This document shows, piece by piece, positions 1-45,608 of a DNA stretch of 64,000 bases. Below the pieces are notes generated by a model. That model was not told where the DNA came from, searched no databases, and saw only the letters and a program-made list of their open reading frames with translations. The DNA comes from a virus. Its lineage: Duplodnaviria > Heunggongvirae > Uroviricota > Caudoviricetes. Every line of letters starts with the position of its first letter. The stretch's first letter is position 1. Position numbers and translations under genes: made by a program. The stretch is taken from positions 5,472 to 69,471 of the IMG/VR virus record IMGVR_UViG_3300031420_000496; one strand, given 5' to 3'.

Positions 1-102
1 GACCGCGATGGAGGTAGAACAATCAAGACGGCAAGAGCTGACTCTGAAGACCAGATGCGGGACCTTGATGAAAATCAATGTGAACAAAAAACGTAATCGA
101 CG

Positions 103-178
103 TTAGACCCGGGGATCGAACCCACTCTCCCACGTCTCAGGTGGGCGCATCAACCAGAGATGCTTTGGCCTCCAATTG
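103..178 (-). tRNA. tRNA-like gene (D-arm and anticodon arm with GAG loop visible; T-stem/acceptor imperfect)
   Basis: GGATCGAACCC T-loop complement; could not close acceptor stem cleanly. Confidence 0.4.
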
Positions 179-213
179 GCGGAGGATAATCAATTACAGC
201 CGGTTCACAAACT

Positions 214-291
214 TGGTCAGGGAGGTGGGATTCGAACCCACAGCCTTCGCGCTCCGGACGCGACCGTCTACCAGATTGACAATACACCCTG
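214..291 (-). tRNA. tRNA (anticodon loop UCCGGAG, possibly CGG; C at position 33)
   Basis: encoded CCA (TGG on plus), T-arm GTGGG/CCCAC, acceptor with one mismatch. Confidence 0.6.
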
Positions 292-298
292 AAAACTT

Positions 299-1573
299 TT
301 ACAACCTCCAGACAAACTTGCCCAGATCGTGATTCTTGAATGCTGACTTCACATCGATGAAATAGCTGTCGACGTCATGCAGCTTGTTGTCGAAGTCGCC
401 ACTATCCATCTCGAGGAATTCGTTATGCGCGACAGCAGCAATGATCGCATTCGCAACCGGGAGCTGTTCCCACGTGTACAACCGGATTCCGTATTCGTTG
501 CGGACTTCATCCGCGTCTGCATGTGGATCATGCACGAATACTTCGATGCCGTAGCTCTTCAACTCGTTGATGATGTCGATCACTTTCGAGTTCCGGATGT
601 CAGCACAGTTCTCTTTGAACGTGATGCCCATCACAATAACTTTCGAACCACGGATCGACTCGCCAACTTCAATCATTCGCTTCACTGTCTGCTCTGCGAT
701 GAACTTGCCCATGCTGTCGTTGATGCGTCGACCTGACAAAATCACTTGAGGAGTATATCCCAGCATTTCTGCTTTGTGAGTCAGGTAGTACGGATCGACA
801 CCGATGCAGTGTCCACCGACCAAACCAGGACGGAACGGCAGGAAGTTCCATTTCGTTCCGGCAGCTTCCAACACTTCAGTGGTGTCGATGCCGATACGTT
901 GGAAAATCAACGCCAGTTCATTCATCAGCGCAATGTTCAGATCGCGTTGAGTATTTTCAATTACCTTGCATGCTTCAGCGACTTTGATGCTCGAGCAGCG
1001 GTGTACGCCAGGCTCGACAATGCTTTCGTAAAGCGCTGCAACCTTGTCCAGAGTTTGCGGACAATCTCCGGACACAACCTTGAGGATCGTCGTCAGCGTA
1101 TGCTTGCGATCGCCCGGGTTGATTCGTTCAGGCGAATAGCCTACGAAGAAATCTTCTTTCCATTTTAGACCCGACGCCTTTTCCAGTTCCGGAATGCAAA
1201 TCTCTTCCGTTGCTCCTGGGTAAACAGTCGACTCGTAAATGACTGTCGTGCCACTCTTCATGTGAGCACCGACAGCTTGACTCGCACCAATCAGCGGAGC
1301 GAAGTCCGGTGTATGTGCGGCATCAACAGGGGTTGGAACAGCGATGATGACCACGTCGACTTCATCGAGTCGACTCAGATCGGAAGTGTACTCCGCATGA
1401 ATTGCGGCAGCCATCACTTCATCCGATATTTCGCTCGAGGGATCAGTGCCGTTTTGGCACGATGAAACCTTCTGCTCGGAAATATCAAAACCGATTGTCT
1501 TGCCGAGTTTTCCGAACTCGACAACGAGTGGGAGCCCAACATAACCAAGACCGATAACACCGATCGACGACAT
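299..1573 (-). CDS. nucleotide-sugar dehydrogenase (UDP-glucose/UDP-ManNAc 6-dehydrogenase family)
   Basis: N-terminal Rossmann motif [11 protein letters not shown], catalytic Cys region, 424 aa; family recognised from motifs. Confidence 0.85.
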
Positions 1574-1591
1574 CTTGAACTCCTAAAATTC

Positions 1592-1668
1592 TGGTAGGCC
1601 GTGAGGGATTCGAACCCTCTCCTCCCGATTATGAGTCGAGAGCTCTTACCAAATGAGCTACCGGCCCA
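1592..1668 (-). tRNA. tRNA-Met/Ile2 (anticodon CAU)
   Basis: clean cloverleaf, loop CUCAUAA, encoded CCA. Confidence 0.8.
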
Positions 1669-1969
1669 ATCATCCAACCAAGCCAATCAACCACGCAAGT
1701 ACAAACGCGGCGATAGCGAGGAAGAAAAATACACGTGCAAAGAAGCCAGCAATAAAACAGATCACTGCAAGAACAAGCAATGAGATACCGAATGAATACA
1801 TGCTGAACCTCCGAAGAAAAAATGGCAAGCGTCCACAGGACTTTAATCAGACTCCGCGTCTGCACTCTTTACTGGGACTGGAGATACTATTTATATCTCC
1901 AGCCTCGCTTTACGATCCCGAACTTTCGTCCGGGATACTGCGACTTAGCCGAGCCAAACCCTTAAACGA

Positions 1970-2701
1970 TTACTCGCGGATTTTCTTCTTGGTCACCACC
2001 GGTGCTTCGACCGGAGCCGGAGCTGGTGCCGGTTCAGCGACTGGCGCTGGAGCGGTGTAGACCGGTGCTGGTGCCGGAGCGACGTAGGTCGTTTTCACGA
2101 CGGTTGCCGGACGCGAGCCGAAGGTGTAGACCAGGCTGACGTTCGCGCTGTTGATGCGGTTGTCCGAACGACCGAAGTCGACGTTCTGGCGCTCGAGTTC
2201 ACCGCGCAGAGCGACTTTGTCGCTGAACTTGTACTGCGCGCCGACGGCGAAGTGCGAACCGGTGTCGTGACCACGACCGCTGGTGATCCAGCCTGGTTCA
2301 CGGCCGGATGCGGTCACGCGGGTACGTGCCACACCAGCTTTACCGATCAGGCCGAAGCGCTCGGTGACCGGAACGGTCAGGACTGCGTCCAGGCCCAGGC
2401 TGCGTGCTTGTGCTTCAGCGCTTGCCAGACGGTTCGACGCGGTGTAGTGGCCGAGGTAGTTTGCCGAGACTTCGGTGCCGAAGTAGCGGTTGAACTTGTA
2501 GCCGACGAAGGCTTTGCCGGTCGTGTCTTTGTCGTCGATCGAGGTCGGGCCGTAGCTCTTGACGTAGTCGACTGCATCGCCTTTCAGCTTGCTTTGGCCT
2601 ACGCCCACACCGGCGTAGAATGCGTTGTCCGGCCATTCGGCGGCGGATGCTGCGTTGGCTGCGAAGAGGGCGGCTGCGATAAGGGCGAGTTTGATTTTCA
2701 T
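1970..2701 (-). CDS. OmpA-like 8-strand beta-barrel outer-membrane protein (no C-terminal peptidoglycan-binding domain)
   Basis: signal peptide MKIKLALIAAALFAANAASA, alternating amphipathic strands ending in F/Y, Pro-Ala-rich tail. Confidence 0.65.
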   Translation of the reverse strand: MKIKLALIAAALFAANAASAAEWPDNAFYAGVGVGQSKLKGDAVDYVKSYGPTSIDDKDTTGKAFVGYKFNRYFGTEVSANYLGHYTASNRLASAEAQARSLGLDAVLTVPVTERFGLIGKAGVARTRVTASGREPGWITSGRGHDTGSHFAVGAQYKFSDKVALRGELERQNVDFGRSDNRINSANVSLVYTFGSRPATVVKTTYVAPAPAPVYTAPAPVAEPAPAPAPVEAPVVTKKKIRE

Positions 2702-3237
2702 TTAGGCTTCTTTATGGTTGTTGAAGAAAGGGCAGAACATTTGTTGCTGTTTGGACAGCGAAGAGATTGTACCTTGTTTTTGAAAAACGTACAAACTATT
2801 TTTGAATTCAGTGCGCGAAGATTTTTCCGTAATCGACACGACTTCCTCAGATTTCTGCTGAGACCGCATACTCCGATTTGCTTCTCGTACAAACCAGATC
2901 AAACACCGAAGAGGTTTTCCCGTTATGGAACTAAATCGCACTACCCCCAGGGGCAGGTGGAGTGAACCTCTCAACACCGCCGATTTCTCGCAGATCAGCC
3001 ACTCGCGTCTCTATTACGATCGAGAAGACCGGTCACACTCCTCAGTGACCTAGGGAACCATAAATTCGATGTGAACCAAGAACCGAGGAATTGATTCACA
3101 AGCTAGAGTCCGGAGAGGACATACCTGGCGAACGTTTCCAATTCAGCTCCCCGCTCTGCGTACGCAGTGGAAACGGTGTGCACTCCCTCATACGAGCCGT
3201 GGCCTTCGGATGCTCGTAATCAACGGGTTGCTCTTTC

Positions 3238-3323
3238 TGGTGGGTCGTCTTGGAGTCGAACCAAGTATGCCAGAGGCGGCGGATTTACAGTCCGCTGCAG
3301 TCGCCAGTGCTGCTCACGACCCA
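3238..3323 (-). tRNA. tRNA-Tyr (GUA), class II
   Basis: acceptor GGGUCGU/ACGACCC, loop CUGUAAA, long variable arm, CCA encoded. Confidence 0.8.
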
Positions 3324-3329
3324 GTGTAA

Positions 3330-3419
3330 TGGCGGAGGATAATGGAATCGAACCATCGCCTGGGAACACCAAGCGGGCGACCTTTCGAGAGTCGTTAATG
3401 CCCAGCATACCTATCCTCC
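3330..3419 (-). tRNA. tRNA-Ser (CGA), class II
   Basis: acceptor GGAGGAU/AUCCUCC, loop CUCGAAA, long variable arm. Confidence 0.75.
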
Positions 3420-3496
3420 AAATTCGTTGCCAGCTTCCACGCATTTAACAGTATCGTGAGGGGCTTACCTGACAGGCCACAACATTTGCTACAACT

Positions 3497-3586
3497 TGGC
3501 GGAGAACTACGGACTCGAACCGTACCCGACCGAAGCCAGGCGATCCGCTTAGCAGGCGGTCCTATTCCCTGAATAGTTAATTCTCC
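3497..3586 (-). tRNA. tRNA-Ser (GCU), class II
   Basis: acceptor GGAGAAU/GUUCUCC, loop CUGCUAA, long variable arm, CCA encoded. Confidence 0.7.
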
Positions 3587-3596
3587 ATGTTCTTCA

Positions 3597-3763
3597 TTTG
3601 TCGTGCTGGATTCGAACCAGCGTTTCTCTATGCGGATTTACGGTCACCATGCCGGTTGATCGAGTGTGGGTTGCATGCGACCCGATGGGATCATTAACCG
3701 TGAGCTGAATTGAACAGTCTACCTACCCTGCTAGAGCGTGATGGGCCACTACACTAACAACAA
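3597..3763 (-). tRNA. elongated tRNA-like gene (~167 nt) with large internal insertion
   Basis: acceptor UUGUUGU/ACGACAA pairs, D-arm UAGUGUAGUGG, T-arm GCUGG UUCGAAU CCAGC; about 90 nt extra between D-arm and T-arm. Confidence 0.45.
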
Positions 3764-3766
3764 ATT

Positions 3767-3840
3767 TGGTTGCGGTCGCTGGAATCGAACCAGTCTTTCG
3801 GATTATGAGCCCGATGTGCCACCACTTACACTACCCCGCG
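3767..3840 (-). tRNA. tRNA (anticodon loop CUCAUAA, CAU) with imperfect acceptor stem
   Basis: CCA encoded, T-arm CUGG/CCAG, anticodon stem UCGGG/UCCGA. Confidence 0.55.
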
Positions 3841-3848
3841 ATTGATCT

Positions 3849-4193
3849 TTAAACCTTTTCATTGCTCAACACTTTCGCCATCTTGCGTTGCTGCTTCTGA
3901 TTCGGCGGATTACCCGTTCCCAAATCATCATGCGTCAGCAATGCTATCAGGTCGATGTACGTTGGGTCTCGTCCTGATCGGCGATACAATACGCTGATGT
4001 CGTTCGTCAAGTGAGCATGGATTAACCCAGTCTCGCCCAAGTCGCCACCAGCAAAGTGCTGGTCCTTCTTTCCAAATCTTGCCATAGGATCGTTCGTCTT
4101 GAACTGAATGAATTCAGCAAGTTTATTTGCGATACCTTTGTGCTTCGCCAGCGTCTGATTGAACAGCTGACTACGTCGAAATTCTACTTTCAC
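3849..4193 (-). CDS. RelE/YafQ-family mRNA interferase toxin (GTG start)
   Basis: motif IHAHLTNDISVLYR and C-terminal ALLTHDDL resemble YafQ/RelE; start GTG overlaps upstream stop in GTGA. Confidence 0.6.
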   Translation of the reverse strand: MKVEFRRSQLFNQTLAKHKGIANKLAEFIQFKTNDPMARFGKKDQHFAGGDLGETGLIHAHLTNDISVLYRRSGRDPTYIDLIALLTHDDLGTGNPPNQKQQRKMAKVLSNEKV

Positions 4194-4369
4194 AGAAGAC
4201 CTTCCTGCGCCAACTGCATCAGAAGAGTCGCACCATCAACCGGCGCCGACAAGTCTTCTTCTTTGACTTGCACAGCTTCGAAAAGCACTTCTTTGTCCAG
4301 GCCACTGTCATCTGCTTCGATAGCTTCGCGCAGTGCGACTTCAGCGATCAGAGTAGTTTTGTTAGCCAT
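4194..4369 (-). CDS. putative antitoxin (58-aa acidic protein)
   Basis: small acidic ORF MANKTTLIAEVALREAIEADDSG.. immediately upstream, stop/start overlap GTGA with toxin; below 60-aa ORF cutoff. Confidence 0.45.
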
Positions 4370-4580
4370 GGTGTACCTCGTTGTCTGTCAATGAAAGCAT
4401 TATAACACGTCCTCACATTTTGTGTAGACTATTTATGCTGTCATTTGAACTTGCAAGAAAAGGGATGGTCGCTACGCCATCATCTGTTTAATGCGCCGGT
4501 GCACCGGGAACAGTCCATCCGTCAATCGTGTCCGAATCCCATGCCTGAGACCTTGCTTTCCACGACGCCTCTTCTTAACT

Positions 4581-4654
4581 TGGTGCCCCACGACAGAATC
4601 GAACTGACGTTTGAAGGTTACAAAGCTCCTGTTCTACCATTGAACTAGTGGGGC
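4581..4654 (-). tRNA. tRNA (loop UUUGUAA, UGU; Thr-like)
   Basis: acceptor GCCCCAC/GUGGGGC, CCA encoded. Confidence 0.7.
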
Positions 4655-4660
4655 GAAACT

Positions 4661-4736
4661 TGGTGCCGGTTGCAGGACTCGAACCCGCCACCCCATGATT
4701 ACAAATCAAGTGCTCTACCAGATGAGCTAAACCGGC
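4661..4736 (-). tRNA. tRNA (loop UUUGUAA, UGU)
   Basis: acceptor GCCGGUU/AACCGGC, D-arm GCUCAUCUGGUAGAGC, CCA encoded. Confidence 0.7.
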
Positions 4737-4743
4737 AAAATCT

Positions 4744-5025
4744 TTACGGTGCTTGTTCGTTGTTGCTTGGAGAGTTCTTGCCGATGTGATAACCATCGCA
4801 TCGCCAGCACTTCCATTTACCGAACGCGTTACCCGTTTTCTTTTCCATCGCTGCCGCAGCTTTCACTGCACTAGCTCTGGTATTGTACATTATTTTTGGC
4901 TGGCCGTCAGATCGTTCGTGTGTTCGTGGATGCCAGAAGCAACCGAACCCGCCTTTCCGTACGTTCCGCCACATGCGGCTTAAAGGCAGTTGATCCTTGA
5001 AGCCGAGATAGATGTTGCGTAGCTT
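4744..5025 (-). CDS. small hypothetical protein with C-terminal CxxC..H motif
   Basis: ORF MKLRNIYLGF..KCWRCDGYHIGKN between tRNAs; the longer 171-aa track ORF runs through tRNA genes. Confidence 0.35.
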   Translation of the reverse strand, partial: KLRNIYLGFKDQLPLSRMWRNVRKGGFGCFWHPRTHERSDGQPKIMYNTRASAVKAAAAMEKKTGNAFGKWKCWRCDGYHIGKNSPSNNEQAP

Positions 5026-5048
5026 CATAACAACTCCCAATAAAAACT

Positions 5049-5123
5049 TGGGCCTAAGGGCTGGATTCGAACCAGCGCACAGCTCCCATAACGGAGCCTG
5101 CTCTACCGCTGAGCTACCTCGGG
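5049..5123 (-). tRNA. tRNA with apparent 6-nt anticodon loop (GUUAUG; UAU-like)
   Basis: good acceptor/D/T arms; anticodon stem GCUCC/GGAGC leaves only 6 loop nt. Confidence 0.55.
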
Positions 5124-5133
5124 CATTGAAACT

Positions 5134-5224
5134 TGGTGGGGATAGTGGGATTCGAACCCACAATACGCTTTCGCGGCTCCACGGTCTGAACGTGGCGACT
5201 TTACCAGAATTTGCCCATATCCCC
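5134..5224 (-). tRNA. tRNA-Leu (CAG), class II
   Basis: acceptor GGGGAUA/UAUCCCC, loop UUCAGAC, long variable arm, CCA encoded. Confidence 0.75.
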
Positions 5225-5231
5225 GTATTTT

Positions 5232-5321
5232 TGGCGGAAGTAGTGAGATTCGAACTCACGGACCTTTTTACCAGTCACCACCTTTCCAAGATGGCGCGAT
5301 AGACCACTCTGCCATACTTCC
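5232..5321 (-). tRNA. tRNA-Ser (GGA), class II
   Basis: acceptor GGAAGUA/UACUUCC, loop UUGGAAA, long variable arm. Confidence 0.75.
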
Positions 5322-5432
5322 ATATCAAAGCCTACTGAATGAATTCACTTGACCACGAATGGGCGAGGTCACGCTGCAGGCGTTGAATTCTTGCCGTCTT
5401 TCGACGCAACCACTATTCAGTGGGCTTTGATA

Positions 5433-5518
5433 TGGAGCGGGTAACAGGATTCGAACCTGCGTAAACTATTCGCCTCTTGATTGGAAGTCAAGTGCTCTAC
5501 CATCTGAGCTATACCCGC
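5433..5518 (-). tRNA. tRNA-Gly(UCC)-like with ~15-nt extended variable region
   Basis: acceptor GCGGGUA/UACCCGC, loop CUUCCAA, extra GGCGAAUAGUUUACGC before T-arm. Confidence 0.6.
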
Positions 5519-5581
5519 ATCGGAACCTTTTTGAAAGCGCTCGTGTTCAGGAGCGAGCTTGCAGCACGCTGCAAGCGGGTT

Positions 5582-5718
5582 TGGTGTAGAGGGTAGGATT
5601 CGAACCTACGACATACTGCTTGGATAACTATTCACATTCGGTTGACGTTTGTCAACAAGTTGCGCAAACAGGTGTCTTTCGACGAGGCGGTCGCTCTGCC
5701 AGACTGAGCTACCTCTAC
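5582..5718 (-). tRNA. elongated tRNA-like gene (~137 nt) with internal insertion carrying GUUGAC-AAAC-GUCAAC hairpin
   Basis: perfect acceptor GUAGAGG/CCUCUAC, canonical D-arm GCUCAGUCUGGCAGAGC and T-arm GUAGG UUCGAAU CCUAC; about 56 nt extra. Confidence 0.5.
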
Positions 5719-5726
5719 ATTAAAAC

Positions 5727-5801
5727 TGGAGCAGGTGAAGGGATTCGAACCCTCGACATTTTCGTTGGCAACGAAAGACTCTACCGCTGAGCTACACCTG
5801 C
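5727..5801 (-). tRNA. tRNA-Gly (GCC)
   Basis: acceptor GCAGGUG/CACCUGC, loop UUGCCAA, CCA encoded. Confidence 0.8.
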
Positions 5802-5879
5802 ATAGTTGCCACCCGGCAATACCCGTTAAGAGACGACGCGTCATCTCATGTGGACTTACTCATTCGCAGTGCCCATTGT

Positions 5880-5953
5880 CTGGGTGGCTGGATTTGAACC
5901 AGCGCCCTCCTCGTTCCAAACAAGGCCGTCTACCAGACTGACATTACACCCAG
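5880..5953 (-). tRNA. tRNA-Pro (UGG), CCA not encoded
   Basis: acceptor CUGGGUG/CACCCAG, loop UUUGGAA. Confidence 0.7.
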
Positions 5954-6010
5954 ACAATGGGCACTGCATAATTATATGACAACAAAAGAGTTTGCATCGG
6001 AGATTTTTCC

Positions 6011-6036
6011 GAGATAACCAATGCATGTCGGTTGTC
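6011..6036. repeat. copy of recurrent hairpin motif GATAACCAAT-N10-CGGTTGTC (spacer copy)
   Basis: inverted repeat GATAACC/GGTTGTC; same motif found inside several tRNA-like genes. Confidence 0.5.
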
Positions 6037-6041
6037 AAACT

Positions 6042-6116
6042 TGGAGTCGCGTGAGGGAATCGAACCCCCGAACATCGGATTTGCAATCCGTGACCTTACC
6101 ACTGGGCTAACGCGAC
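6042..6116 (-). tRNA. tRNA-Cys (GCA)
   Basis: acceptor GUCGCGU/ACGCGAC, loop UUGCAAA, CCA encoded. Confidence 0.75.
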
Positions 6117-6306
6117 ATTGTTCGTTTGTTCATGTTGTCTCAATCAGATTCTCCTGAGTACGAGGAGTATATGCGACGGCTACCAACCTATGCATTTCCC
6201 ATTGTACCGCACTAGTCCTCTGTTGAACAGTCAAGGCGTCGGAAGCATAACCGGACTGATGGCAGTTACACGTACTCGCACATGAACAAGTTCTTACACC
6301 ATATTC

Positions 6307-6393
6307 TGGTGCGGATGATGGGACTCGAACCCACACGCCCTTTCGGGCATTAGGCCCTCAACCTAACGCGTCTACCAGTTCCGCCACAACCGC
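6307..6393 (-). tRNA. tRNA-Leu (GAG), class II
   Basis: E. coli Leu-like D-arm UGGCGGAACUGGUAGACGCG, loop UUGAGGG, long variable arm, CCA encoded. Confidence 0.75.
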
Positions 6394-6846
6394 TTTGGTT
6401 CTGAACTTGCCCTTCGAAAAGGTATGTGTCTGCGTATGGCAGTTTGGACATAGCAATCTGAGGTTGGATTGCGCGTTGTTCGTTTTATCACCGTCGATAT
6501 GATCTACCTGCAAAACTAGCTTCTTGCCGTTCCACATGGGCGGCTGTTTGCATTCGGAACACTCGTCGGTCCATAATCCTGCTTTCAACATTTTCTTCTT
6601 GATGGCAGCGCCAGTCATGAAGTGTTCGTTGCTGAAAATCTTTTCAAGTGGAATCTCCCACTTTGGATTTGGCTTCTTCGTACCTTTCAAACCTTGATTC
6701 GGTGCGTACAAGCCAAACTCTTTACAACGTCGCTTGAACGTCATAAAGGATAATCCTATCACATCTGAAGCAGCTTTCGCAGAATTACTTTGCGTTAAAG
6801 CCCATTCAATTTGTTCTTTCGTTACTTCAATTTTATTTCTTGCCAT
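6358..6846 (-). CDS. HNH homing endonuclease
   Basis: VDHIDGDKTNN..LRLLCPNCH motif; RBS GAGGAG before ATG at 6846; 3' end overlaps tRNA-Leu by ~36 nt. Confidence 0.85.
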   Translation of the reverse strand: MARNKIEVTKEQIEWALTQSNSAKAASDVIGLSFMTFKRRCKEFGLYAPNQGLKGTKKPNPKWEIPLEKIFSNEHFMTGAAIKKKMLKAGLWTDECSECKQPPMWNGKKLVLQVDHIDGDKTNNAQSNLRLLCPNCHTQTHTFSKGKFRTKAVVAELVDALG

Positions 6847-6898
6847 TTGATAGACGCTCCTCAAAGAGGGTATTTATACGTCTATCAACGCGAATTCT

Positions 6899-6974
6899 TG
6901 GTGGCGAGGGGTGGATTTGAACCACCGTACCTCCGTCGCAATGACGGCCGCTCTAATCGCTGAGCTACCTCGCC
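6899..6974 (-). tRNA. tRNA (loop AUUGCGA, UGC; Ala-like anticodon but no G3:U70)
   Basis: acceptor GGCGAGG/CCUCGCC, CCA encoded. Confidence 0.7.
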
Positions 6975-6979
6975 TAAGT

Positions 6980-7054
6980 TGGTCGGAGTGGGGTGAATCG
7001 AACACCCGAGTTTCTGGTCCCAAACCAGACGACCTACCACTGGACTACACTCCG
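6980..7054 (-). tRNA. tRNA-Pro(UGG)-like, paralog A
   Basis: loop UUUGGGA; near-identical to 7423-7497 with compensatory stem changes. Confidence 0.7.
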
Positions 7055-7335
7055 ATTCTATCTTTGTAGCCCGGCGAATCTTGGAAGATTCCGTCGAGCC
7101 ACCATTCTGGAAAATTTCCATCAGCATACAGTTCCTTGACAAACAAGGTGCCGAGTGCAATGTCTTCTTTCCAGGATGTCACTGTCATGTTCAAGTAACC
7201 TTTGCCGATGAGGTATCCGTTTTTCGGATTCACTCTCGTGCCATAAGATTCGCTGTTGAACATTTCGAGTAATGCTTCATCGCTGAAGTCTAACCCTGTC
7301 CAATGTCGAGCGAAGTATTTGTATAACTCCGCCAT
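7045..7335 (-). CDS. hypothetical protein (flanked by paralogous tRNAs)
   Basis: ORF MAELYKYFARHWTGLDF..; 3' end overlaps tRNA by ~10 nt. Confidence 0.45.
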   Translation of the reverse strand: MAELYKYFARHWTGLDFSDEALLEMFNSESYGTRVNPKNGYLIGKGYLNMTVTSWKEDIALGTLFVKELYADGNFPEWWLDGIFQDSPGYKDRIGV

Positions 7336-7422
7336 CCGTTTGAATTTCTTACTGACGCCGTTTACAGACGTACGTGGTTGACCCTTGTTGCGTTTAGCGA
7401 TGTCATAGCATCCTCCATAAAT

Positions 7423-7497
7423 TGGTCGGAGTGGCAGGAATCGAACCTGCGAGTTCATGGTCCCAAACCATGCGACCTACCACTGGACTACACTCCG
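7423..7497 (-). tRNA. tRNA-Pro(UGG)-like, paralog B
   Basis: anticodon stem CAUGG/CCAUG and T-stem GCAGG/CCUGC differ from paralog A by compensatory pairs. Confidence 0.7.
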
Positions 7498-7564
7498 ATA
7501 AAACAGAAACTGTCATTCAAAATAGCAACAAAAGTAGCTATCGGGAATTGTGCCCTTGACCACT

Positions 7565-7660
7565 GCACATTAAGGGAATCGAACCCTCTCGGTTTTTCAT
7601 CATAGTAAAAGTAGATAACCAATAAGCAAGCGGTTACTATTTTGGATGACAGCTTCACAA
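7565..7660 (-). other. tRNA-like remnant containing hairpin motif copy (T-arm present, acceptor not closable)
   Basis: GGGAATCGAACCC T-loop complement plus AGATAACCAATAAGCAAGCGGTTAC. Confidence 0.3.
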
Positions 7661-7666
7661 TAAACT

Positions 7667-7787
7667 TGGCTGAGGTCGTCCGGACTCGAACCGGATCTTC
7701 GCCTTTATGAGTGGATAACCAATCACAGGGCGGTTCATTGCTGAACAAAAATGCGCGATCGATGTTTTTCGCGTGCTAACCCTTACA
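7667..7787 (-). tRNA. elongated tRNA-like gene (~120 nt; CAU-type anticodon loop CUCAUAA) with ~45-nt insertion carrying hairpin motif
   Basis: acceptor UGAGGUG/GACCUCA (6/7), D-arm GUGUAAGGGUUAGCAC, T-arm UCCGG UUCGAGU CCGGA; insertion homologous to that in 9123-9262. Confidence 0.5.
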
Positions 7788-7957
7788 CTACACCTCAATT
7801 GTCGAACTCTAGCAGTTCGTAATGGATCACTATCCATCGCTGATGCTTGCTACCACAACCTTCCTCCTTGCACCGCTTTCGCGGTGGGCAGTCATGCGTG
7901 GCTTCATTTCAAGCGTGCCGCATTAAGTACGGCCGAGCATTCTTAAAAACACTTAGT

Positions 7958-8028
7958 AGCGGGTACACGATTCGAACGTGTGATGGCGAAGGCTTATGAG
8001 ACCCTGCTGGTGACCAGGCCCTACCCGC
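7958..8028 (-). tRNA. short tRNA-like gene (loop CUCAUAA, CAU)
   Basis: acceptor GCGGGUA/UACCCGC, T-arm ACACG UUCGAAU CGUGU; atypical D-region. Confidence 0.45.
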
Positions 8029-8093
8029 AACTAAGTATTCTCAAAGCTTGTCGAAGAGCAAGCATTATACACTGTTCTTCGACAAGCTGAATT

Positions 8094-8549
8094 TTATTTT
8101 TGAATCAAACGTCTGCTTAACTGACTATGGCAGTTCGGGCACAAGAACCGCAAGTTCTCAGCACGATCGTCCAGCCAATCTTCATTGATGTGATCGACGT
8201 CAAGCGTCAGTGGATGACCGTGCCATTCAGGCAGTTGTCCGCATTTCTCACACTCATGTTTCCTACCAATTTCCAACAAACTTCTGACAAGCTGTTCTGC
8301 TTTTGCTCGACCGCCGCTTTCTCGCTTCACAAGAATGTCTGCAGCATATTTTCGTTTGTGGCTAATCTTACCAGATGATGAAGACTTACCGAGCATGTGA
8401 CTCATGTCGAGACCGAGGTTTTTAGCACGACGCGTATAGTGGCCGTGCGATCCGCCTGCTTCTTTGATGCCGAGCTTGCGAAGCACTTCGCGGAACGTCG
8501 TGCTCGCTGCTACTGCTTCAGTCAGCATTTCATCGGTTATATTCTTCAT
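8094..8549 (-). CDS. HNH homing endonuclease
   Basis: LTLDVDHINEDWLDDR..LRFLCPNCH motif; start MKNITDEML. Confidence 0.85.
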   Translation of the reverse strand: MKNITDEMLTEAVAASTTFREVLRKLGIKEAGGSHGHYTRRAKNLGLDMSHMLGKSSSSGKISHKRKYAADILVKRESGGRAKAEQLVRSLLEIGRKHECEKCGQLPEWHGHPLTLDVDHINEDWLDDRAENLRFLCPNCHSQLSRRLIQK

Positions 8550-8561
8550 ATCACTTTTGTT

Positions 8562-8644
8562 TGGTGCGCCAGGTGGGACTCGAACCCACAAGGTTACTCG
8601 CTCTAAACGAGTCAGTTGTACCAATTCACATTATCTACTGGCGC
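8562..8644 (-). tRNA. tRNA (loop UUUAGAG, UAG; Leu-like anticodon) with enlarged D-region
   Basis: acceptor GCGCCAG/CUGGCGC, T-arm GUGGG UUCGAGU CCCAC, CCA encoded. Confidence 0.6.
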
Positions 8645-8649
8645 ATTGT

Positions 8650-8728
8650 TGGTACCCACGGCCGGAGTCGAACCGGCAGAATCACGATGTTTTGAGCATC
8701 GCCGCTTTGCCAAATTGCGTACGTGGGC
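8650..8728 (-). tRNA. class I tRNA with anticodon CAA (loop CUCAAAA)
   Basis: clean cloverleaf GCCCACG..CGUGGGU, short variable loop; Leu anticodon on a non-Leu-type body. Confidence 0.65.
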
Positions 8729-8839
8729 ATTGTTAAAAAGAGTGTTCGACTGGGTAACAAAATGTCCAGCTCACCAACACTCGAAAAAGAGAGGAACAAA
8801 AAGCGTCAATCGGTAATGTCCTCTGAGAGGCAACCGTTT

Positions 8840-8990
8840 TCACGGTCTGAGCGGATTCGACACCCTCTAACTGACCGAAGCCAGTATTTCACCTGATAAC
8901 CAATTAACAACGGTTCCATCATTTGAGGTCTCTGCTTCAACACCCAGTGTCTTAGGGTGAAGTCGTGTATAACTACTTTTCCAGCAGTCT
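8840..8990 (-). other. structured tRNA-like element with hairpin motif copy (not a clean tRNA)
   Basis: TGATAACCAATTAACAACGGTTCC motif plus GGATTCGAC T-loop-like segment. Confidence 0.3.
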
Positions 8991-9040
8991 ACCGGTATTT
9001 CGCCACAGCGGATGACTAGTCCGTCAAAGACCTTAAATGA

Positions 9041-9114
9041 TGGAGCGGGTATGGGGAATCGAACCCCAGTCTTAAGCTTGGAAGGCTTCAGCTCTACCAT
9101 TGAGCTATACCCGC
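9041..9114 (-). tRNA. tRNA-Gly (UCC)
   Basis: very similar to E. coli tRNA-Gly2 (..CCUUCCAAGC..), CCA encoded. Confidence 0.8.
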
Positions 9115-9122
9115 AAGAATTC

Positions 9123-9262
9123 TGGTGGAGTTGGGTAGGATTCGAACCTACCTAAGCCAGAGGCGCGCCATTTACAGTGGATAACCAATTAGCGAGCGGT
9201 TGTAGAAACAACAAAGATTTGCAATCGATGTTTACGTGGGTTTTCCAATTCCCTACAACTCC
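9123..9262 (-). tRNA. elongated Tyr-like tRNA (~140 nt; loop CUGUAAA, GUA) with ~60-nt insertion carrying hairpin motif
   Basis: acceptor GGAGUUG/CAACUCC, D-arm GGGAAUUGGAAAACCC, Tyr-like variable arm CGCCUCUGGC, T-arm GUAGG UUCGAAU CCUAC. Confidence 0.5.
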
Positions 9263-10125: not shown

Positions 10126-10241
10126 ACCCCATAATCAAAGCGCACTCAAGTGTGCTGCTTACACTAAACTCATTGAGTTCCCTTTGTCCACGCGATTCGG
10201 GTCGTCCTGATGGACGGGACTACAAGAGTACGCTTTGATTA

Positions 10242-10324
10242 TGGTGCACGCCACTGGAATCGAACCAGTTCAGCCAAAGGCCACTGCTTTACAGGCAGCT
10301 TATCTCTCCAAGGATAGGACGTAC
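10242..10324 (-). tRNA. tRNA-Tyr(GUA)-like
   Basis: acceptor GUACGUC/GGCGUGC with two G-U pairs, loop CUGUAAA, 13-nt variable arm. Confidence 0.6.
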
Positions 10325-10557: not shown

Positions 10558-10784
10558 AATATTCTCCAGTTGATGAGAGAATTATACATCACAACGAATT
10601 TAAAGCACACTGTTAAAAGCGTCGCAGCTTTATCTGTCCGTCTCACACCGGCCGATTTACTCGGCCATGTTTACCATTCCAGTGTACCAAATCAATATGC
10701 ACTGTGCGAGAAAGGAGTTGAACCTTTCATGCGCTAATGTATAGCTGTTCTTACCACTTGAACTATCGACAGTGCATATTGATT

Positions 10785-10860
10785 TGGTGGTTCCTGCAGG
10801 AGTCGAACCTGCGACCTAATGCTTGTAAGGCATCCGCTCTACCAGCTGAGCTAAGGAACC
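10785..10860 (-). tRNA. tRNA-Val (UAC)
   Basis: acceptor GGUUCCU/AGGAACC, loop CUUACAA, CCA encoded. Confidence 0.8.
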
Positions 10861-12589: not shown

Positions 12590-12901
12590 TCAAGACAGAA
12601 GATTTGCAACCGCTTGTGGAACCATGTCGAGCAATTCTACCACTCGTTGAGAAGCCATCGGAAAACGATACTTCAGGTCAAACACAACCACTTCCGTTGC
12701 CACGAATATTTCGCTCTTTGTTGGATCGAGCGGCAACGTGCTTCGCTCCAATGCGGATTCGAGCGCTGCCTGAATTTCTTCAGGCAGCTGGACGAAGATT
12801 TCCGGCAACGTCATTTCGGTATTAGCCATGAAGGATTTGCTGTGCCGCTGCGCCCGATACGATCTGAAGACCGCTCGTGTTTTGGTTGTAAGATTGTTCA
12901 A
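12590..12901 (-). CDS. hypothetical protein
   Basis: 103-aa ORF in minus-strand operon. Confidence 0.45.
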   Translation of the reverse strand: MNNLTTKTRAVFRSYRAQRHSKSFMANTEMTLPEIFVQLPEEIQAALESALERSTLPLDPTKSEIFVATEVVVFDLKYRFPMASQRVVELLDMVPQAVANLLS

Positions 12902-13148
12902 CGTCGCGTGGCACTGCGTAGTGGGCCATGATGCCTGCAGTTTGCAGAACGATGTCGCCTTCGTTGATGATGGTCCATGGATAGAACTGACAGACCATTC
13001 CGCCTTCAGGATTTTCTTTGGACTTCGGCACGATCTGCATAACCATCATGAGCGGGTCTTGCACAGTCAGAGTGCCATCAGGATTTTCCGACACGACCTT
13101 TGCCACCAGCTCGTCGCCGGTTGTGAGTTTGATACCTTTGATTTGCAT
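12822..13148 (-). CDS. hypothetical protein
   Basis: 108-aa ORF. Confidence 0.45.
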   Translation of the reverse strand: MQIKGIKLTTGDELVAKVVSENPDGTLTVQDPLMMVMQIVPKSKENPEGGMVCQFYPWTIINEGDIVLQTAGIMAHYAVPRDVEQSYNQNTSGLQIVSGAAAQQILHG

Positions 13149-13163
13149 TATGTGTTTCCTTGA

Positions 13164-13508
13164 TTAGTCGAAAAAGTACCAGTCAAGCGCTTGCGTGACG
13201 TTGAGTTCTTTTCCAGTGGTTGCTTCTTTGACTACGAGAATGTAGCCGAGACCTGTTGGCGTGAAGCTGTATGTCACTCCGCCGCCAATCGCACCGTAGT
13301 ACGGTTCATCATCGCCGAGCGGACCCGGTCCTTGGATGGCCATGATTTCCGGTTTCAGTTCTTCAAGCCATTGGCGAATGACTTGCTCTTCCGCGTCGAG
13401 TACGCGGATGATGCGCGCTGGCTGATCGAAGTTTTCGCCGTACTTGGCGATGAGTTCTTCTTTCAACTTCTTGCGCTTTGTCAGAATGTTATTGAATGCG
13501 TCAGTCAT
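13164..13508 (-). CDS. hypothetical protein
   Basis: 114-aa ORF. Confidence 0.5.
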   Translation of the reverse strand: MTDAFNNILTKRKKLKEELIAKYGENFDQPARIIRVLDAEEQVIRQWLEELKPEIMAIQGPGPLGDDEPYYGAIGGGVTYSFTPTGLGYILVVKEATTGKELNVTQALDWYFFD

Positions 13509-13807
13509 GATACGTCAGGCTTACGGTAAAATGCTTTGACGTTGTCAACGATGAAGCTGCGCCAACCCTGACGGTCGAGCGAGTAGACGTGGAGGAGGTG
13601 ATTTTGTTCGGTGCGAGCTTCGAGTTCTCGTTCCGATTCAGGCAGAAGCCTTTCGTCAAGAGTGCACTCCATGACGGCTGGTGTACCGTCTTTCTTCGTG
13701 AACTCGACAATCCAGCTACCATGCTTGAGCTTGTTGCGGTAATCCTCGCGAAGGCCGGATGGGTTACCTTCCCACTTGTCGATGAGAATCTGGACGATGG
13801 AAGTCAT
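13505..13807 (-). CDS. hypothetical protein
   Basis: 100-aa ORF, ATGA overlap with neighbour. Confidence 0.5.
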   Translation of the reverse strand: MTSIVQILIDKWEGNPSGLREDYRNKLKHGSWIVEFTKKDGTPAVMECTLDERLLPESERELEARTEQNHLLHVYSLDRQGWRSFIVDNVKAFYRKPDVS

Positions 13808-17771: not shown

Positions 17772-17847
17772 TCCTAAATTCTGGTGCCCCGTGCGGGGAT
17801 CGAACCCGCAACCCTCGGTTTTAGAGACCGCCACTCTGCCAGTTGAG
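17772..17847 (-). tRNA. amber suppressor tRNA (anticodon CUA), Trp-like body
   Basis: clean cloverleaf GCCUCGU..ACGGGGC-A-CCA; anticodon arm GCGGU-CUCUAAA-ACCGA matches E. coli tRNA-Trp CCGGU-CUCCAAA-ACCGG except C35->U. Confidence 0.7.
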
Positions 17848-17927
17848 CTAACGAGGCTTAATCTGTACTGCCTGTTTCGTTCAGTGGAATCATTATACCC
17901 GGTTCACACTGTCTTGCACAGCCTTTT

Positions 17928-42131: not shown

Positions 42132-43562
42132 TCATTTTTCTTGTTCGAGGTACAGGTTGCTGATGGCCTTGAACTGGTGCGAACCGTCCATTGCTTTGAA
42201 CACCAGGCCTTCACGCACGTTGTTGTTCATGCTTGGGCCAATGGCGAACTGCAGCAGTTCGTCCATGTTCTTGATGCCCAGTTCTTCGAGCGTGACGCCA
42301 AAGTGCAGGGTCGGAACATGCTCGATCACGACGTTGATGTTCTCGACGCGGGCAATGCTGTTCATCTTTGCCACCAGCGACTTGCGCTCGCGCGGAGTCA
42401 TGAACTCGCCTTTGTCGATGTCGAAGATGTTGTAGACGAAGAAGCGATTGGTCTTGAAACCTTCGCGGTTGCCTTGGATACCAGGACCCATCAGCTCGCC
42501 TTGAAGTGCGATGTCTTGACCGACGCTTCGCAGCACTTGCAGAATACCGCTGTTCGCCATCTGCACGAAGGCGTTGTCGTCGTTGCCTTCCATCTTCAGA
42601 TCGAGGTTACGCGAGCACACGCCTTCCAGCGGTTCGCCGCCGGCACCGTAACGATACACGGTCATCGAACTGCCGTCCATTTTCAGCGTGACTTCGTAAC
42701 GAGTGTCGCGGCTTGCTTGCGGCGGACGGACGAACTGCAGTACATCGCCGGTCATGCGCATACGACCAGCAGCGATTGCGGCGTCCTTGTCTTCTTGCGA
42801 CATTGCAGCGACGGCTTCTGCCGGAACCGGCGAGAAGGTTTCATCGTAGCCGAAGATTTGCGAGCCCATGTTCTGGCAACGTTCTTGGTCCGACTTGCGG
42901 AGGAACGTTGGGAAGTTACCCTTCGCCATGCCAGCCAGTTGTGCGTTGACAGGCTTGTCCCACTTCATGATGCCGAGCAGGCCAGTGAAGTTGATGTCGC
43001 GAATTTTTTCGACTTCGCTTTTCCCGATTCCCAGGCCGATCAGATGATCGATGATTTCCGGGAACGCATCGAGCGGAAGTGCGAGGCCTTGCGACAGCTG
43101 CTTGCGCAGGCGAATCGTTTTCAGTCGTGCACCTGGAATGTCGTTCCAGTTGATGGCGTTCTTTTCGAGGAACTTGAAACGTTCGTCCGACATTGGCAGG
43201 TACGAGTCGACCTCGAAGAAGACGCACAGGTCGCCAACTTTGAACTCGCCGGCTTTTACGACGACTGGCCAGCCTTCGACCATTGCTTTCTTGATCAGGT
43301 CGGCGCCAGGAATATCTTCGATCGAAGTGATTTGACGAACAGTCACCAGCTTGCGGCCGTCTGCCACAGCTTCGTCGACGAGTTGTTGGCGACGCAGCAC
43401 TTCAGCTTGTTCGGCTGCAGTTGCATCAGCTTCAAGATATGCCTGCATTTCTTCTTCGTTGGTAACGACAATGCCGTCTTTCAGAGCTTCAGCTTTCCAG
43501 CCGCCTTGTGCGATTTCTTGTGTTGGTTGTCCCATGGTATTTCCTTTAAAGTGGTTCGCCAA
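42132..43562 (-). CDS. ATP-dependent RNA-ligase-like nucleotidyltransferase with ~290-aa N-terminal extension
   Basis: ligase motif I KMDGS (VTLKMDGSSMTVY) and downstream GELMGPGIQGN. Confidence 0.55.
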   Translation of the reverse strand: MANHFKGNTMGQPTQEIAQGGWKAEALKDGIVVTNEEEMQAYLEADATAAEQAEVLRRQQLVDEAVADGRKLVTVRQITSIEDIPGADLIKKAMVEGWPVVVKAGEFKVGDLCVFFEVDSYLPMSDERFKFLEKNAINWNDIPGARLKTIRLRKQLSQGLALPLDAFPEIIDHLIGLGIGKSEVEKIRDINFTGLLGIMKWDKPVNAQLAGMAKGNFPTFLRKSDQERCQNMGSQIFGYDETFSPVPAEAVAAMSQEDKDAAIAAGRMRMTGDVLQFVRPPQASRDTRYEVTLKMDGSSMTVYRYGAGGEPLEGVCSRNLDLKMEGNDDNAFVQMANSGILQVLRSVGQDIALQGELMGPGIQGNREGFKTNRFFVYNIFDIDKGEFMTPRERKSLVAKMNSIARVENINVVIEHVPTLHFGVTLEELGIKNMDELLQFAIGPSMNNNVREGLVFKAMDGSHQFKAISNLYLEQEK

Positions 43563-44082
43563 TCATTTCGAATGGCAATGCAATTCGTGCTTGTTCTTCC
43601 GGATGTCCTTCGTGCGCTTTGATTGCTTTGCGCGCAGACTTCTTTCCTTCTTCGAGTCGATGCTCGCTGATCAACTCGGGATGATCCTTTCGGAATTGCA
43701 AGTCTTCTGGCGTCAGCGTGTTGCCGCGTCCGCCGTTACAAACTTCGCATGCAGGCCGCAGATTTTCGTTAACATCAACACCGCCCAAAGATTTTGGAAT
43801 GATGTGGTCACGATTCATCAGCACCAACTCGCCGTATCGCATGCCGTACAAATTGAGCACTGGATTTCCCATGTGCTTCGGCCCACGATCAGCAATCCAT
43901 CGGTCGGCAGCGCATCCGCACTTCCAACACGTGATTGGTTTGCCTTTGTATGTTTGAAAAAGATTCCAGCCCGAGCATTGAGATACTTGTCGGCCGCCAA
44001 CAAGACGGTCGTACTTTGTTTTCTCGAGGACTTCGAAACCTTCTTCTATCGTTAGTTCTTTATAGAAGATTAGCATGGAAAG
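43546..44082 (-). CDS. HNH endonuclease
   Basis: DHIIPKSLGG..NLRPACEVCN. Confidence 0.75.
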   Translation of the reverse strand, partial: LSMLIFYKELTIEEGFEVLEKTKYDRLVGGRQVSQCSGWNLFQTYKGKPITCWKCGCAADRWIADRGPKHMGNPVLNLYGMRYGELVLMNRDHIIPKSLGGVDVNENLRPACEVCNGGRGNTLTPEDLQFRKDHPELISEHRLEEGKKSARKAIKAHEGHPEEQARIALPFEMIGEPL

Positions 44083-44120
44083 CATTCTATCACGCGCAAT
44101 GTTGCTTGCACGCCAACATT

Positions 44121-44558
44121 TCAGTTGATGCCGTGATTTGTCAGTTCGCGCGACAGCTTGAGGAAAAGGAGAATGTTGAAACACCTGGCGTACGCTTCAC
44201 ACATCATCACTGGAGTTTCGACTTTCACTCCTTTGATTTCGAAGCCGGCAACCCAGCCGAGCTTCGATGATGGTGATGTTCCAGGCGCGTTGACGACGAC
44301 CGACAATCCGAGTTTGTTTTCAATTGTCGAAACGCCATTGAGGTCTGAGAGATAGTTCAGCTGTGGCATCGCCCACAATGGAACGCATGACAGAAAGTAA
44401 TCGTTGAGTCGATTGTTGCGAGCGAAGCGTTCCCAGTTTTCATTGATAAGGTCAGTGCAACGTACGGCAAGAGCCTCGATGGAAGGCGGAGCTTCCCGAG
44501 GCTTCTTTGGATTGAACATGTCAATCACATTATTCACTGACTTTCTCCGGGGTTGCAT
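44121..44558 (-). CDS. hypothetical protein
   Basis: 145-aa ORF. Confidence 0.4.
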   Translation of the reverse strand: MQPRRKSVNNVIDMFNPKKPREAPPSIEALAVRCTDLINENWERFARNNRLNDYFLSCVPLWAMPQLNYLSDLNGVSTIENKLGLSVVVNAPGTSPSSKLGWVAGFEIKGVKVETPVMMCEAYARCFNILLFLKLSRELTNHGIN

Positions 44559-45393
44559 GCCACATCGGTTTCACTGGCTCAACGTACTGCATGTTTTCGA
44601 TCGTGATGAACTTCGGCCCGAACAGATTGAAGATGGTGCCGTACTCTTGACGATAGCCCGATGGATTGCAGACGACGCGGCAACCATGCAGAATGCGGTC
44701 GATCGTATCGTGAGTGTGGCCGTGAATCCAAACTGCTGGTGCGTGTTCACCGCCCATCAAATCATCGCTGTGCGAAGCGAAGCCACCGTTGATTGCGCCA
44801 CCGAAACGTGGATGGCAAAGTTGGTACGATGGCATGTGATGGGTCGCGACAACGGTCTTGCCGTCGAACGGAGTTTCCAGCAATGCTTTGATCTTGCTCT
44901 TCTGCGAACGATACATCGTTTTCATATCGGCGACAGTGAATTTCTTGTCGCCAACACGTGCAAGACGGAAGTCGTTCAAGTAGCGGCCGATGTCTGCGTG
45001 TTCAGCAAGCGTCGATCCACCATCGCCCCACAGAGTACCGAAGATGAAGCGGACGCCTTCAAATTCCTCGACAGCAACATCGTTGCCACAGAATTTGATA
45101 TTGGGTGCTTCTTTGAGTGCTTCAGTAACAGCACGTTCCCACGAAGCAAACTCGTGGCCGTAGTATTCGTGGTTGCCTGGAATGTAGATGACTCGCATGA
45201 ACCGGTCTTTGAGCCAGCCCAGGAAAGGAATGAGTTGTGCGGGTTTCGAGCTGATGTCACCAGCAAGAACAAGTACGCTTTCCGAGTCGCGTGGATCGGG
45301 CGGTACAAAGCTGTTAGCTAAGAATTCCTCTCGTTGACCGAGTAGTTGTTCCAAGTGTAGGTCCGAAAGGACTCTGATATATTTTGGTTTCAT
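44530..45393 (-). CDS. calcineurin-like metallophosphoesterase
   Basis: LSDLHLE, GDIS, GNHE, GHTHD motifs. Confidence 0.8.
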   Translation of the reverse strand: MKPKYIRVLSDLHLEQLLGQREEFLANSFVPPDPRDSESVLVLAGDISSKPAQLIPFLGWLKDRFMRVIYIPGNHEYYGHEFASWERAVTEALKEAPNIKFCGNDVAVEEFEGVRFIFGTLWGDGGSTLAEHADIGRYLNDFRLARVGDKKFTVADMKTMYRSQKSKIKALLETPFDGKTVVATHHMPSYQLCHPRFGGAINGGFASHSDDLMGGEHAPAVWIHGHTHDTIDRILHGCRVVCNPSGYRQEYGTIFNLFGPKFITIENMQYVEPVKPMWHATPEKVSE

Positions 45394-45602: not shown

Positions 45603-45608
45603 GGATAT

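Follow-up and report, generated by a model that had tools for sequence, protein, structure and literature searches.

What is the short sequence that recurs among the tRNA genes of a large uncultivated phage, and why does it lie inside some of these genes and beside others? The DNA studied here, called the window, is a 64-kb stretch of a Caudoviricetes genome (IMG/VR record IMGVR_UViG_3300031420_000496, positions 5,472 to 69,471), and all coordinates are given on its plus strand. Its first 11 kb form a tRNA island: of the 28 tRNA genes that ARAGORN predicted in the window, the island holds 27, all on the minus strand. To our knowledge, bacteria and their viruses have only the self-splicing group I and group II introns, and enzyme-dependent tRNA splicing and split or permuted tRNA genes are traits of archaea and eukaryotes. 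Our analysis showed a conserved, covarying two-helix RNA stalk that occurs in two layouts, both at precise positions of tRNA genes. The recurrent motif is the 3' half of this bipartite element, read on the minus (tRNA-sense) strand. Judging from sequence comparison, we believe that the stalk is probably a new intervening or processing element, whose excision, followed by ligation of the exons, would give mature phage tRNAs.

Seven copies of a motif in the tRNA island

A sequence-only reading of the window had described at least seven copies of a hairpin motif in the island, and the seven that it listed were all found again. The 10-mer GATAACCAAT has exactly five matches in the 64 kb, all on the plus strand and within 3.2 kb of one another, and there are two variant copies. 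With the CGGTT half included, the motif copies are as follows:

185-205, plus strand, variant of the 10-mer with one mismatch (at 185)
5623-5643, plus strand, variant with two mismatches (at 5623)
6013-6033, plus strand, exact match (at 6013)
7614-7635, plus strand, exact match (at 7614)
7714-7735, plus strand, exact match (at 7714)
8895-8915, plus strand, exact match (at 8895)
9180-9201, plus strand, exact match (at 9180)

By 10-mer arithmetic, chance alone would give ~0.1 exact matches over the two strands of the 64 kb. Because there are five, on a single strand, and no copy in the window lies beyond 185-9201, we regard the copies as real and non-random. Their placement, mostly within elongated tRNA-like genes with one in a spacer, had been described broadly correctly: three are inside over-long tRNA genes, three flank tRNA-like pieces, and one is in a spacer. 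What had been overlooked is that some are arranged in circularly permuted order around the tRNA pieces. We call the motif Y in its tRNA-sense form, AACCG-N8-10-ATTGGTTATC.

A two-helix RNA stalk supported by covariation

In each of the three interrupted genes, Y is preceded by a second module, X, of the form (N)AAAC-ATCGAT-...-TTTGTT. The parts of X are, in order, an A-rich tail (N)AAAC, helix strand P1a (A)UCGAU, a linker ending in UUU, and strand P2a GUUnn; those of Y are P2b nnAAC, CG, 4-6 nucleotides (nt), P1b AUUGGU, UAU, and then the C with which the downstream exon begins. Together they form a stalk made of P1 (9-10 bp) and a variable P2, with a conserved internal loop between them. P1 pairs ATCGAT with ATTGGT and includes two conserved G.U pairs, and P2 pairs GTTnn with nnAAC. 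These helices were first seen by eye in an alignment of 26 intron-type copies from viral contigs (A1), for which RNAalifold, given no structure, returned exactly the same 13 pairs.

In A1, 96.7% of cells are paired, 7 of the 13 pairs show compensatory change, and there are 41 double-change cells compared with 12.0±3.1 in shuffles (0/500); when the structure was slid by 1-3 columns as a control, only 11-61% of cells paired. A set of 32 metagenome copies (A3; 27 distinct sequences), which were found with a covariance model, R1, and not used to build it, gave 97.2% paired cells and 26 double-change cells against 6.7±2.0 when shuffled. In a "de-permuted" alignment of 28 permuted units (A2, described below), 87.6% of cells are paired and double-change cells number 105 against 36.8±4.7 (0/500). 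Two pairs of P1, U.G and G.U, are near-invariant wobbles that would be C.A mismatches on the opposite strand, and the selected structure is therefore RNA of the tRNA sense. Unpaired invariant bases are found in the internal loop (UUU/CCG) and beside the boundaries (AAAC and UAU/C, where the last slash marks the boundary).

The hairpin proposed originally, between the GATAACCAAT half and CGGTT (AACCG with UGGUU in the RNA), did not survive this comparison. Its five pairs never covary, and 8/8 departures among 28 sequences break a pair; in the relatives it is P1 and P2 that covary, and the bases of the hairpin belong to these two other helices. P1 compensates for substitutions such as GGTTATC to GATTATC, its U.G pair changing to U-A. 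The AACCG/UGGUU pairing, complementary in 94% of cells, could still form as an alternative conformer, since invariant columns do not speak against it. In outline, then, the idea that the motif belongs to a structured RNA module, specific to a family and linked to tRNA genes, was supported, and a role as a processing signal is probable, with the correction that the motif is only the 3' half of an X+Y stalk.

tRNA genes interrupted by the stalk

In the first, intron-like layout (5' exon-X-Y-3' exon), a tRNA gene that is otherwise intact carries the stalk either within the anticodon loop or within the 5' strand of the anticodon stem. Three tRNA genes of the window are interrupted in the anticodon arm in this way:

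5582-5718, minus strand, tRNA(CCC) gene with a 60-nt insert at 5624-5683 in the anticodon loop
7667-7797, minus strand, tRNA-Met(CAT) gene with a 55-nt insert at 7715-7769, at 28/29; X at 7744-7763, Y at 7714-7735
9123-9262, minus strand, tRNA-Tyr(GTA) gene with a 54-nt insert at 9181-9234, between anticodon-stem positions 28/29; as read from the sequence, X at 9210-9229, Y at 9180-9201 and the 3' exon from C9180

All three inserts are matched by R1, with 71.2 bits for tRNA-Met (7708-7780), 68.1 bits for tRNA-Tyr (9174-9245), where the minimum free energy (MFE) fold yields P1 and P2, and 41.1 bits for tRNA(CCC) (5617-5689). The last copy is divergent: its Y at 5623-5643 reads AACCG..AATAGTTATC and its P1 is CTGTTT/GAATAG. 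The Rfam tRNA model scores the gene at 50.2 bits and places a 64-nt insertion in its anticodon loop, and ARAGORN in intron mode reports a 60-nt intron there.

A single 3' boundary rule, TTAT/C, restores the anticodon stems of the interrupted genes. Over 37 genes the junctions fall at 26/27, 27/28, 28/29, 29/30, 31/32, 33/34 or 34/35, always before C. For tRNA-Met, one of ~200 deletion choices gives an ARAGORN tRNA (76 nt); it removes an intron AAAAACATCG...GGTTAT, and this sole solution starts the 3' exon at the C of TTATC. Exhaustive deletion followed by ARAGORN was rejected as a general way to fix exact splice sites, as the program is too permissive and the answer was unique for tRNA-Met only. 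Orthologous Met, Tyr and CCC genes in different contigs carry the insert at the identical site.

Removal of the insert leaves non-canonical anticodon loops in several tRNAs of related loci (for example in L120, L147, L198, L221 and L224); odd loops include AUCAUCC with a C at position 37, and a C at position 33 in L109 and L189. The window also contains a further over-long tRNA-like gene (3596-3764, minus strand) with a different, 94-nt insertion that has no X/Y motif. This gene is seen only in the intron mode of ARAGORN, and the Rfam tRNA model makes no call.

The stalk in permuted order

Upstream of the copies at 185, 6013, 7614 and 8895 there is no X. For each of them, a downstream X carries a P1a that matches the copy's own P1b, and the bases just 5' of Y pair with those just 3' of this X, so the order is P2b-Y, exon, X-P2a. 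This order is a circular permutation of exon plus intron, opened in the P2 loop. Four such units are present in the window:

79-209, minus strand, permuted unit 1; P2b at 203-209, Y at 185-205, exon at 106/107-185, X at 80-101 (P1a GTCGATTA, P2a GTTCAC; P1 pairs 8/8)
5977-6037, minus strand, "empty" permuted unit in the spacer after tRNA-Cys; P2b TGACAAC, Y at 6013-6033, X at 5981-6001, P2a GTTGTCA
7506-7656, minus strand, permuted unit; Y at 7614-7635, exon and tail at 7546-7614, X at 7527-7545, with a long-range P2 of ~24 bp
8788-8920, minus strand, permuted unit; Y at 8895-8915, exon and tail at 8815-8895, X at 8795-8814; P1 pairs 8/8

In this layout P2 joins sequences 60-200 nt apart. Over 29 units from the window and its relatives, the variable part of the long-range P2 pairs at 5.17 of 7 positions, compared with 2.93±0.23 for shuffled partners, and the highest of 2000 partner shuffles reached 3.62. 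MFE folds of native permuted units show the stalk.

The exon of unit 79-209 reads CCTCC-G-CCA-ATT-GGAGGCC, followed by the D arm, anticodon GAG, the T arm and GGGT, and in the MFE fold of the unit P2, P1 and the inner tRNA arms all form. Only when exon 106-185 is circularised does it give a tRNA at the default threshold of ARAGORN, a 76-nt tRNA(GAG) with an encoded CCA and the joined ends at 67/68 of the acceptor stem. As in a circularly permuted tRNA gene, its 3' part lies upstream and joining restores the cloverleaf, with the caveat that shifted-boundary controls likewise yield some junction-spanning ARAGORN calls. Homologues in two related contigs read CCTCC-G-CCA-TTT-GGAGGCC (L189) and CTTTC-G-CCA-AAACT-GAAAGGC (L075), so that the acceptor hairpin is compensated across three contigs (CTTTC/GAAAG in L075 and CCTCC/GGAGG in the others). 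Another contig, L157, has a permuted tRNA(CCC) with its junction in the anticodon loop, and the same tRNA type is interrupted at the same site by an intron-type stalk in the window.

The cargo of the other units is different. Unit 5977-6037 holds a 12-nt loop, and the P2+P1 hairpin forms in both its MFE fold and its centroid fold (z = -2.4); it is one of at least six "empty" units with loops of 12-16 nt. The fold of unit 7506-7656 is stable (z = -4.6, with 0/200 shuffles as stable). Its exon, 7546-7614, contains an AU-rich stretch and AAAAACC, together with a T arm and a second hairpin whose loop, GG...AAGG, is D-loop-like; it has no acceptor stem. Members of this exon family occur in 7 contigs (the window, L042 at ~4180-4246, L056 at ~3954-4022, L109, L075, L124 and L152), always between Y and X, and both the T arm and the second hairpin covary; the module may be a mimic of the tRNA elbow. 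In exon 8815-8895 a T arm is accompanied by a hairpin resembling a variable arm and by an acceptor-like stem with a GAAA cap (ACCGT-GAAA-ACGGT), and ARAGORN found no tRNA in this exon when circularised.

Distribution of the element

Pattern scans found X-Y inserts in tRNA genes of many IMG/VR viral contigs, several of them 340-368 kb long, and R1 gave 33 intron-type matches at E ≤ 6e-4 across the window and IMG/VR loci. The window itself comes from a jumbo phage, with a clamp loader that shares 43% identity with its counterpart in Ralstonia phage RsoM2USA and 40% with the one in Xanthomonas phage XacN1. The island of RsoM2USA, a cultured relative with 33 tRNA genes, contains no copy by regular expression or by R1. 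A blastn search of the region and a consensus intron against 50,697 GenBank phage records returned nothing relevant. Among 185,579 representative bacterial and archaeal genomes there were 13 pattern matches, none near a tRNA and none convincing under R1 (17-27 bits or unreported at E ≤ 0.1, compared with 30-77 for real copies). The element was found to be restricted to the tRNA islands of uncultivated jumbo phages. No family in Rfam 15 matched it and full-text literature searches gave no description of it, and we rate the RNA family and its arrangement as new.

A model for excision and ligation

The main argument for removal and joining is that a working tRNA could not tolerate an insert in the anticodon, as in the CCC genes, or a gene order that begins with ...CCA. 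We propose that the stalk marks two cuts, one at UAU/C and the other just 5' of the A-rich tail. The exon ends would be held side by side by the tRNA's own helix through its complementary strand, and would then be ligated. The intron layout would in this way give a normal tRNA, and the permuted layout a circular pre-tRNA that would be opened at the acceptor end by 5' and 3' end processing. Cutting and joining could be done by a protein endonuclease of phage or host origin and by an RNA ligase, for which the window encodes a candidate:

42132-43562, minus strand, ATP-dependent RNA ligase gene, candidate accessory only (Pfam PF09414 at 1.9e-23 and PF21189 at 5.5e-35; PHA02142 OB domain)

The model predicts the junctions ...GCACGCG to CCACTCATAA for tRNA-Met, ...CCCACG to CCACTGTAAA for tRNA-Tyr, and ...GCCTC to CCAAGCAG for tRNA(CCC), together with a back-splice junction of ...CCCCGGGT to CCTCCGCCA for exon 106-185. 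In its full form, in which a ~55-nt stalk directs excision and ligation in jumbo-phage tRNA precursors, the permuted form passes through circular RNA, and the catalyst is either a new structure-specific endoribonuclease acting with a phage RNA ligase or a new class of ribozyme, we regard the model as an even call.

Several results weigh against it. The intron-type stalks are thermodynamically weak, with z about 0 in MFE folding. The 5' boundary lies at a varying distance from P1 (a tail of 4-8 nt) and is therefore not set by distance from the stalk, and among 354 tRNAs and the related loci there was no intron-less allele or orthologue by which to fix the boundaries. When long exons were circularised, 6/25 gave a junction-spanning ARAGORN tRNA compared with 2-3/25 with shifted boundaries, so this test separates exons from controls only modestly. 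The maturation of tRNAs does not explain the "empty" units, nor does it explain exons 7546-7614 and 8815-8895, which are not standard tRNAs. As for the enzymes, Pfam and PHROGs scans of ~80 open reading frames (ORFs) of the window found no splicing-type endonuclease, and the RNA ligase family is common in phages, most of which show no sign of the element.

Alternative explanations

In the strongest competing view, the stalk would be a small ribozyme of a new kind that cleaves itself and may also ligate itself; it would cut at either boundary or at both with no protein nuclease devoted to it, and the exons would be joined by a ligase or by the reverse reaction. Known small ribozymes occur in circularly permuted forms, as this element does, invariant unpaired bases are present in the internal loop and beside the boundaries, and no nuclease gene was found among ~80 ORFs of the window. 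We nevertheless consider a ribozyme unlikely. The two cut sites are ~9 bp from the conserved loop, which is hard for one small active site to reach, the distance to the 5' cut varies, folding is weak, and no Rfam ribozyme family matched the stalk even at E ≤ 10. Because of these two sites, the varying 5' distance, the weak folds, and invariant bases that resemble a recognition surface, we favor a protein as the cutter.

Slightly less probable still is a selfish, mobile, hairpin-forming insertion similar to a miniature repeat element, in which case there would be no splicing and the interrupted genes would be dead or dying. Such an insertion would fit the varying insertion points (26/27 to 34/35, and 67/68, always before C), the "empty" copies in spacers, the absence of copies from the island of RsoM2USA, and the odd anticodon loops of several interrupted tRNAs. 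It does not fit the cloverleaf pairing of the exons, which is kept across the junction, or the shared insert sites of orthologous Met, Tyr and CCC tRNAs, and the conserved G.U pairs favor selection at the RNA level. Moreover, simple insertion cannot produce a permuted order with a restored acceptor stem and CCA that is compensated in three contigs.

The stalk might also be a protein-binding handle that is kept in the mature RNA as part of a scaffold, a decoy or a Y-RNA-like particle, with the tRNA-like modules acting as mimics rather than decoders. The 7546-7614 exon family, a T arm and a D-loop-like "elbow" without an acceptor stem on a long stalk, would fit such a handle, and small Sm-like proteins are encoded beside the island. 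We think it improbable, as it leaves unexplained both the inserts inside the anticodon of otherwise normal tRNAs and the permuted tRNA with its CCA, and the sole Rfam match to YrlA (24.7 bits against a threshold of 69) is located elsewhere.

Finally, a simple AACCG/CGGTT hairpin serving as a DNA site, such as the homing-endonuclease target suggested by the sequence-only reading or a promoter, is very hard to credit: its halves are invariant and mostly complementary and HNH genes are present in the island, but every change breaks one of its pairs while being compensated in P1, only one strand carries copies, the conserved wobbles work on the RNA-sense strand only, and the HNH genes are not consistently adjacent to the copies. 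A sigma-70-like promoter (TTGACA-N16-TATCTC in the 6013 copy) was rejected because its -35-like part is not conserved elsewhere and RNA covariation explains the conservation, and a terminator and promoter cassette dividing the tRNAs into halves was ruled out on the same grounds.

Comparison with known systems

The initial impression that standard bacterial tRNA biology does not account for the motif was supported. In archaea and eukaryotes, the bulge-helix-bulge (BHB) signal has two 3-nt bulges separated by a 4-bp helix, which carry the two splice sites, and it serves both ordinary introns and permuted genes, in which the ends are joined and the product is then opened at the acceptor end. Like the stalk, BHB introns and the tRNA genes that are split or permuted in archaea and in the red alga Cyanidioschyzon merolae involve short, protein-free-looking inserts at varied tRNA positions (reviewed in PMC6379350 and PMC9602550). 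The geometry of the stalk is different, however: its consensus is P1 and P2 rather than bulge-helix-bulge, and both boundaries are at the open end of P1 (9-10 bp) with unpaired tails of 4-8 and 3 nt. Its conserved sequence (AACCG, AUUGGUUAUC) is unrelated, its host is a bacteriophage, and no EndA/TSEN-family Pfam domain was seen in ~80 ORFs of the window.

The anticodon arm is likewise the site of group I introns in the tRNA genes of bacteria and phages. These introns are typically >200 nt with a P3-P9 catalytic core, whereas the inserts of the window are 54-60 nt with two helices, and no Rfam Intron_gpI match was found (E ≤ 1 over 20 kb; E ≤ 10 over 331 nt). HDV-like "theta" ribozymes resemble the stalk in being small structured RNAs directly 3' of phage tRNAs, but the helices of the stalk are nested and do not form a double pseudoknot. 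None of the known small self-cleaving ribozymes (hammerhead, twister, twister-sister, pistol, hatchet, hairpin, HDV-like) gave a match with Rfam 15. YrlA and Y RNA are marked by a Ro/Rsr-binding stem, and in YrlA a stem bears a tRNA-like module of T arm and D arm; the one YrlA match here, with a gathering score of 69 to reach, is at 5693-5758 and not at the stalk. For the permuted units, a parallel is found in the permuted intron-exon (PIE) design, in which a 3' intron half, an exon and a 5' intron half follow one another and long-range pairing rebuilds the core. In permuted ssrA, which encodes two-piece transfer-messenger RNA (tmRNA), the gene encodes the CCA end ahead of the 5' end, as the permuted unit does. 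PIE, however, is an engineered group I design and permuted tmRNA is not religated, while here the stalk is small and new and the cargo is a tRNA. The "enigmatic" tRNA introns of Lak megaphages are likewise non-group-I introns of phage tRNA genes that were found through over-long predictions; they are 87-93 nt, AT-rich and located at 37/38 (PMC6784885). We rejected them as the same element, as they are longer, unrelated in sequence and lack GGTTATC. In function, the closest systems are the BHB introns, the permuted and split tRNA genes of archaea and the red alga, and engineered PIE; in structure the stalk is none of these.

If the model is correct, a stalk that interrupts or permutes the tRNA genes of numerous uncultivated jumbo phages would alter the picture of such genes as exclusively archaeal and eukaryotic. 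It would be the first splicing outside groups I and II, and the first permuted tRNA genes, in the bacterial and phage world. It would bring to light tRNA genes overlooked by standard annotation and would point to a nuclease or ribozyme of unknown kind. Phages may use it to gate tRNA maturation, for instance to evade the anticodon nucleases of the host or to make the supply of tRNAs depend on the phage repair ligase, and it would offer a compact natural module for the production of circular RNA.

Enzyme genes and other features of the window

The RNA ligase gene is part of an RNA-repair-type gene set on the minus strand (42132-50506), with an HNH gene, a DNA ligase gene and two others:

44530-45393, minus strand, metallophosphoesterase (PF00149)
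49466-50506, minus strand, RlaP RNA-repair nucleotidyltransferase (PF10127)

The window has three HNH genes in total, two of them in the island. A tblastn search of the window ORFs against the related loci found no protein that tracks the element. Just past the tRNA island are two small proteins with an Sm-like fold (12822-13148 and 13505-13807, minus strand), with a WYL_2 match at 7.8e-11 and a weak Sm_like match; the second is conserved beside the island in contig L017.

Between 200 and 9800 (minus strand), most tRNA genes end in an encoded CCA followed by AGTTT, and at copies 185 and 6013 this trailer continues directly into P2b of the element. Long stems across tRNA spacers are made by inverted repeats that are 19-22 nt long, 90-100% complementary and distinct from the X/Y stalk:

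5319-5340 and 5415-5436, inverted repeat
5866-5886 and 5947-5967, inverted repeat
8915-8934 and 9025-9044, inverted repeat
10129-10147 and 10226-10244, inverted repeat
10686-10705 and 10769-10788, inverted repeat

One pair flanks tRNA-Pro and lengthens its acceptor stem by 15 bp. These repeats may be double-strand-specific processing sites. One tRNA has an irregular anticodon loop (5049-5123, minus strand), and another has the anticodon CTA of an amber suppressor, labelled Pyl by ARAGORN (17782-17857, minus strand). Lastly, domains of DNA polymerase III alpha lie in separate short ORFs, 52067-52642 and 58246-58806 (minus strand). A homing-endonuclease gene at 51547-52143 (plus strand), with copies in 10 related loci, overlaps the polymerase ORF 52067-52642, which suggests that the polymerase gene has been split or invaded.

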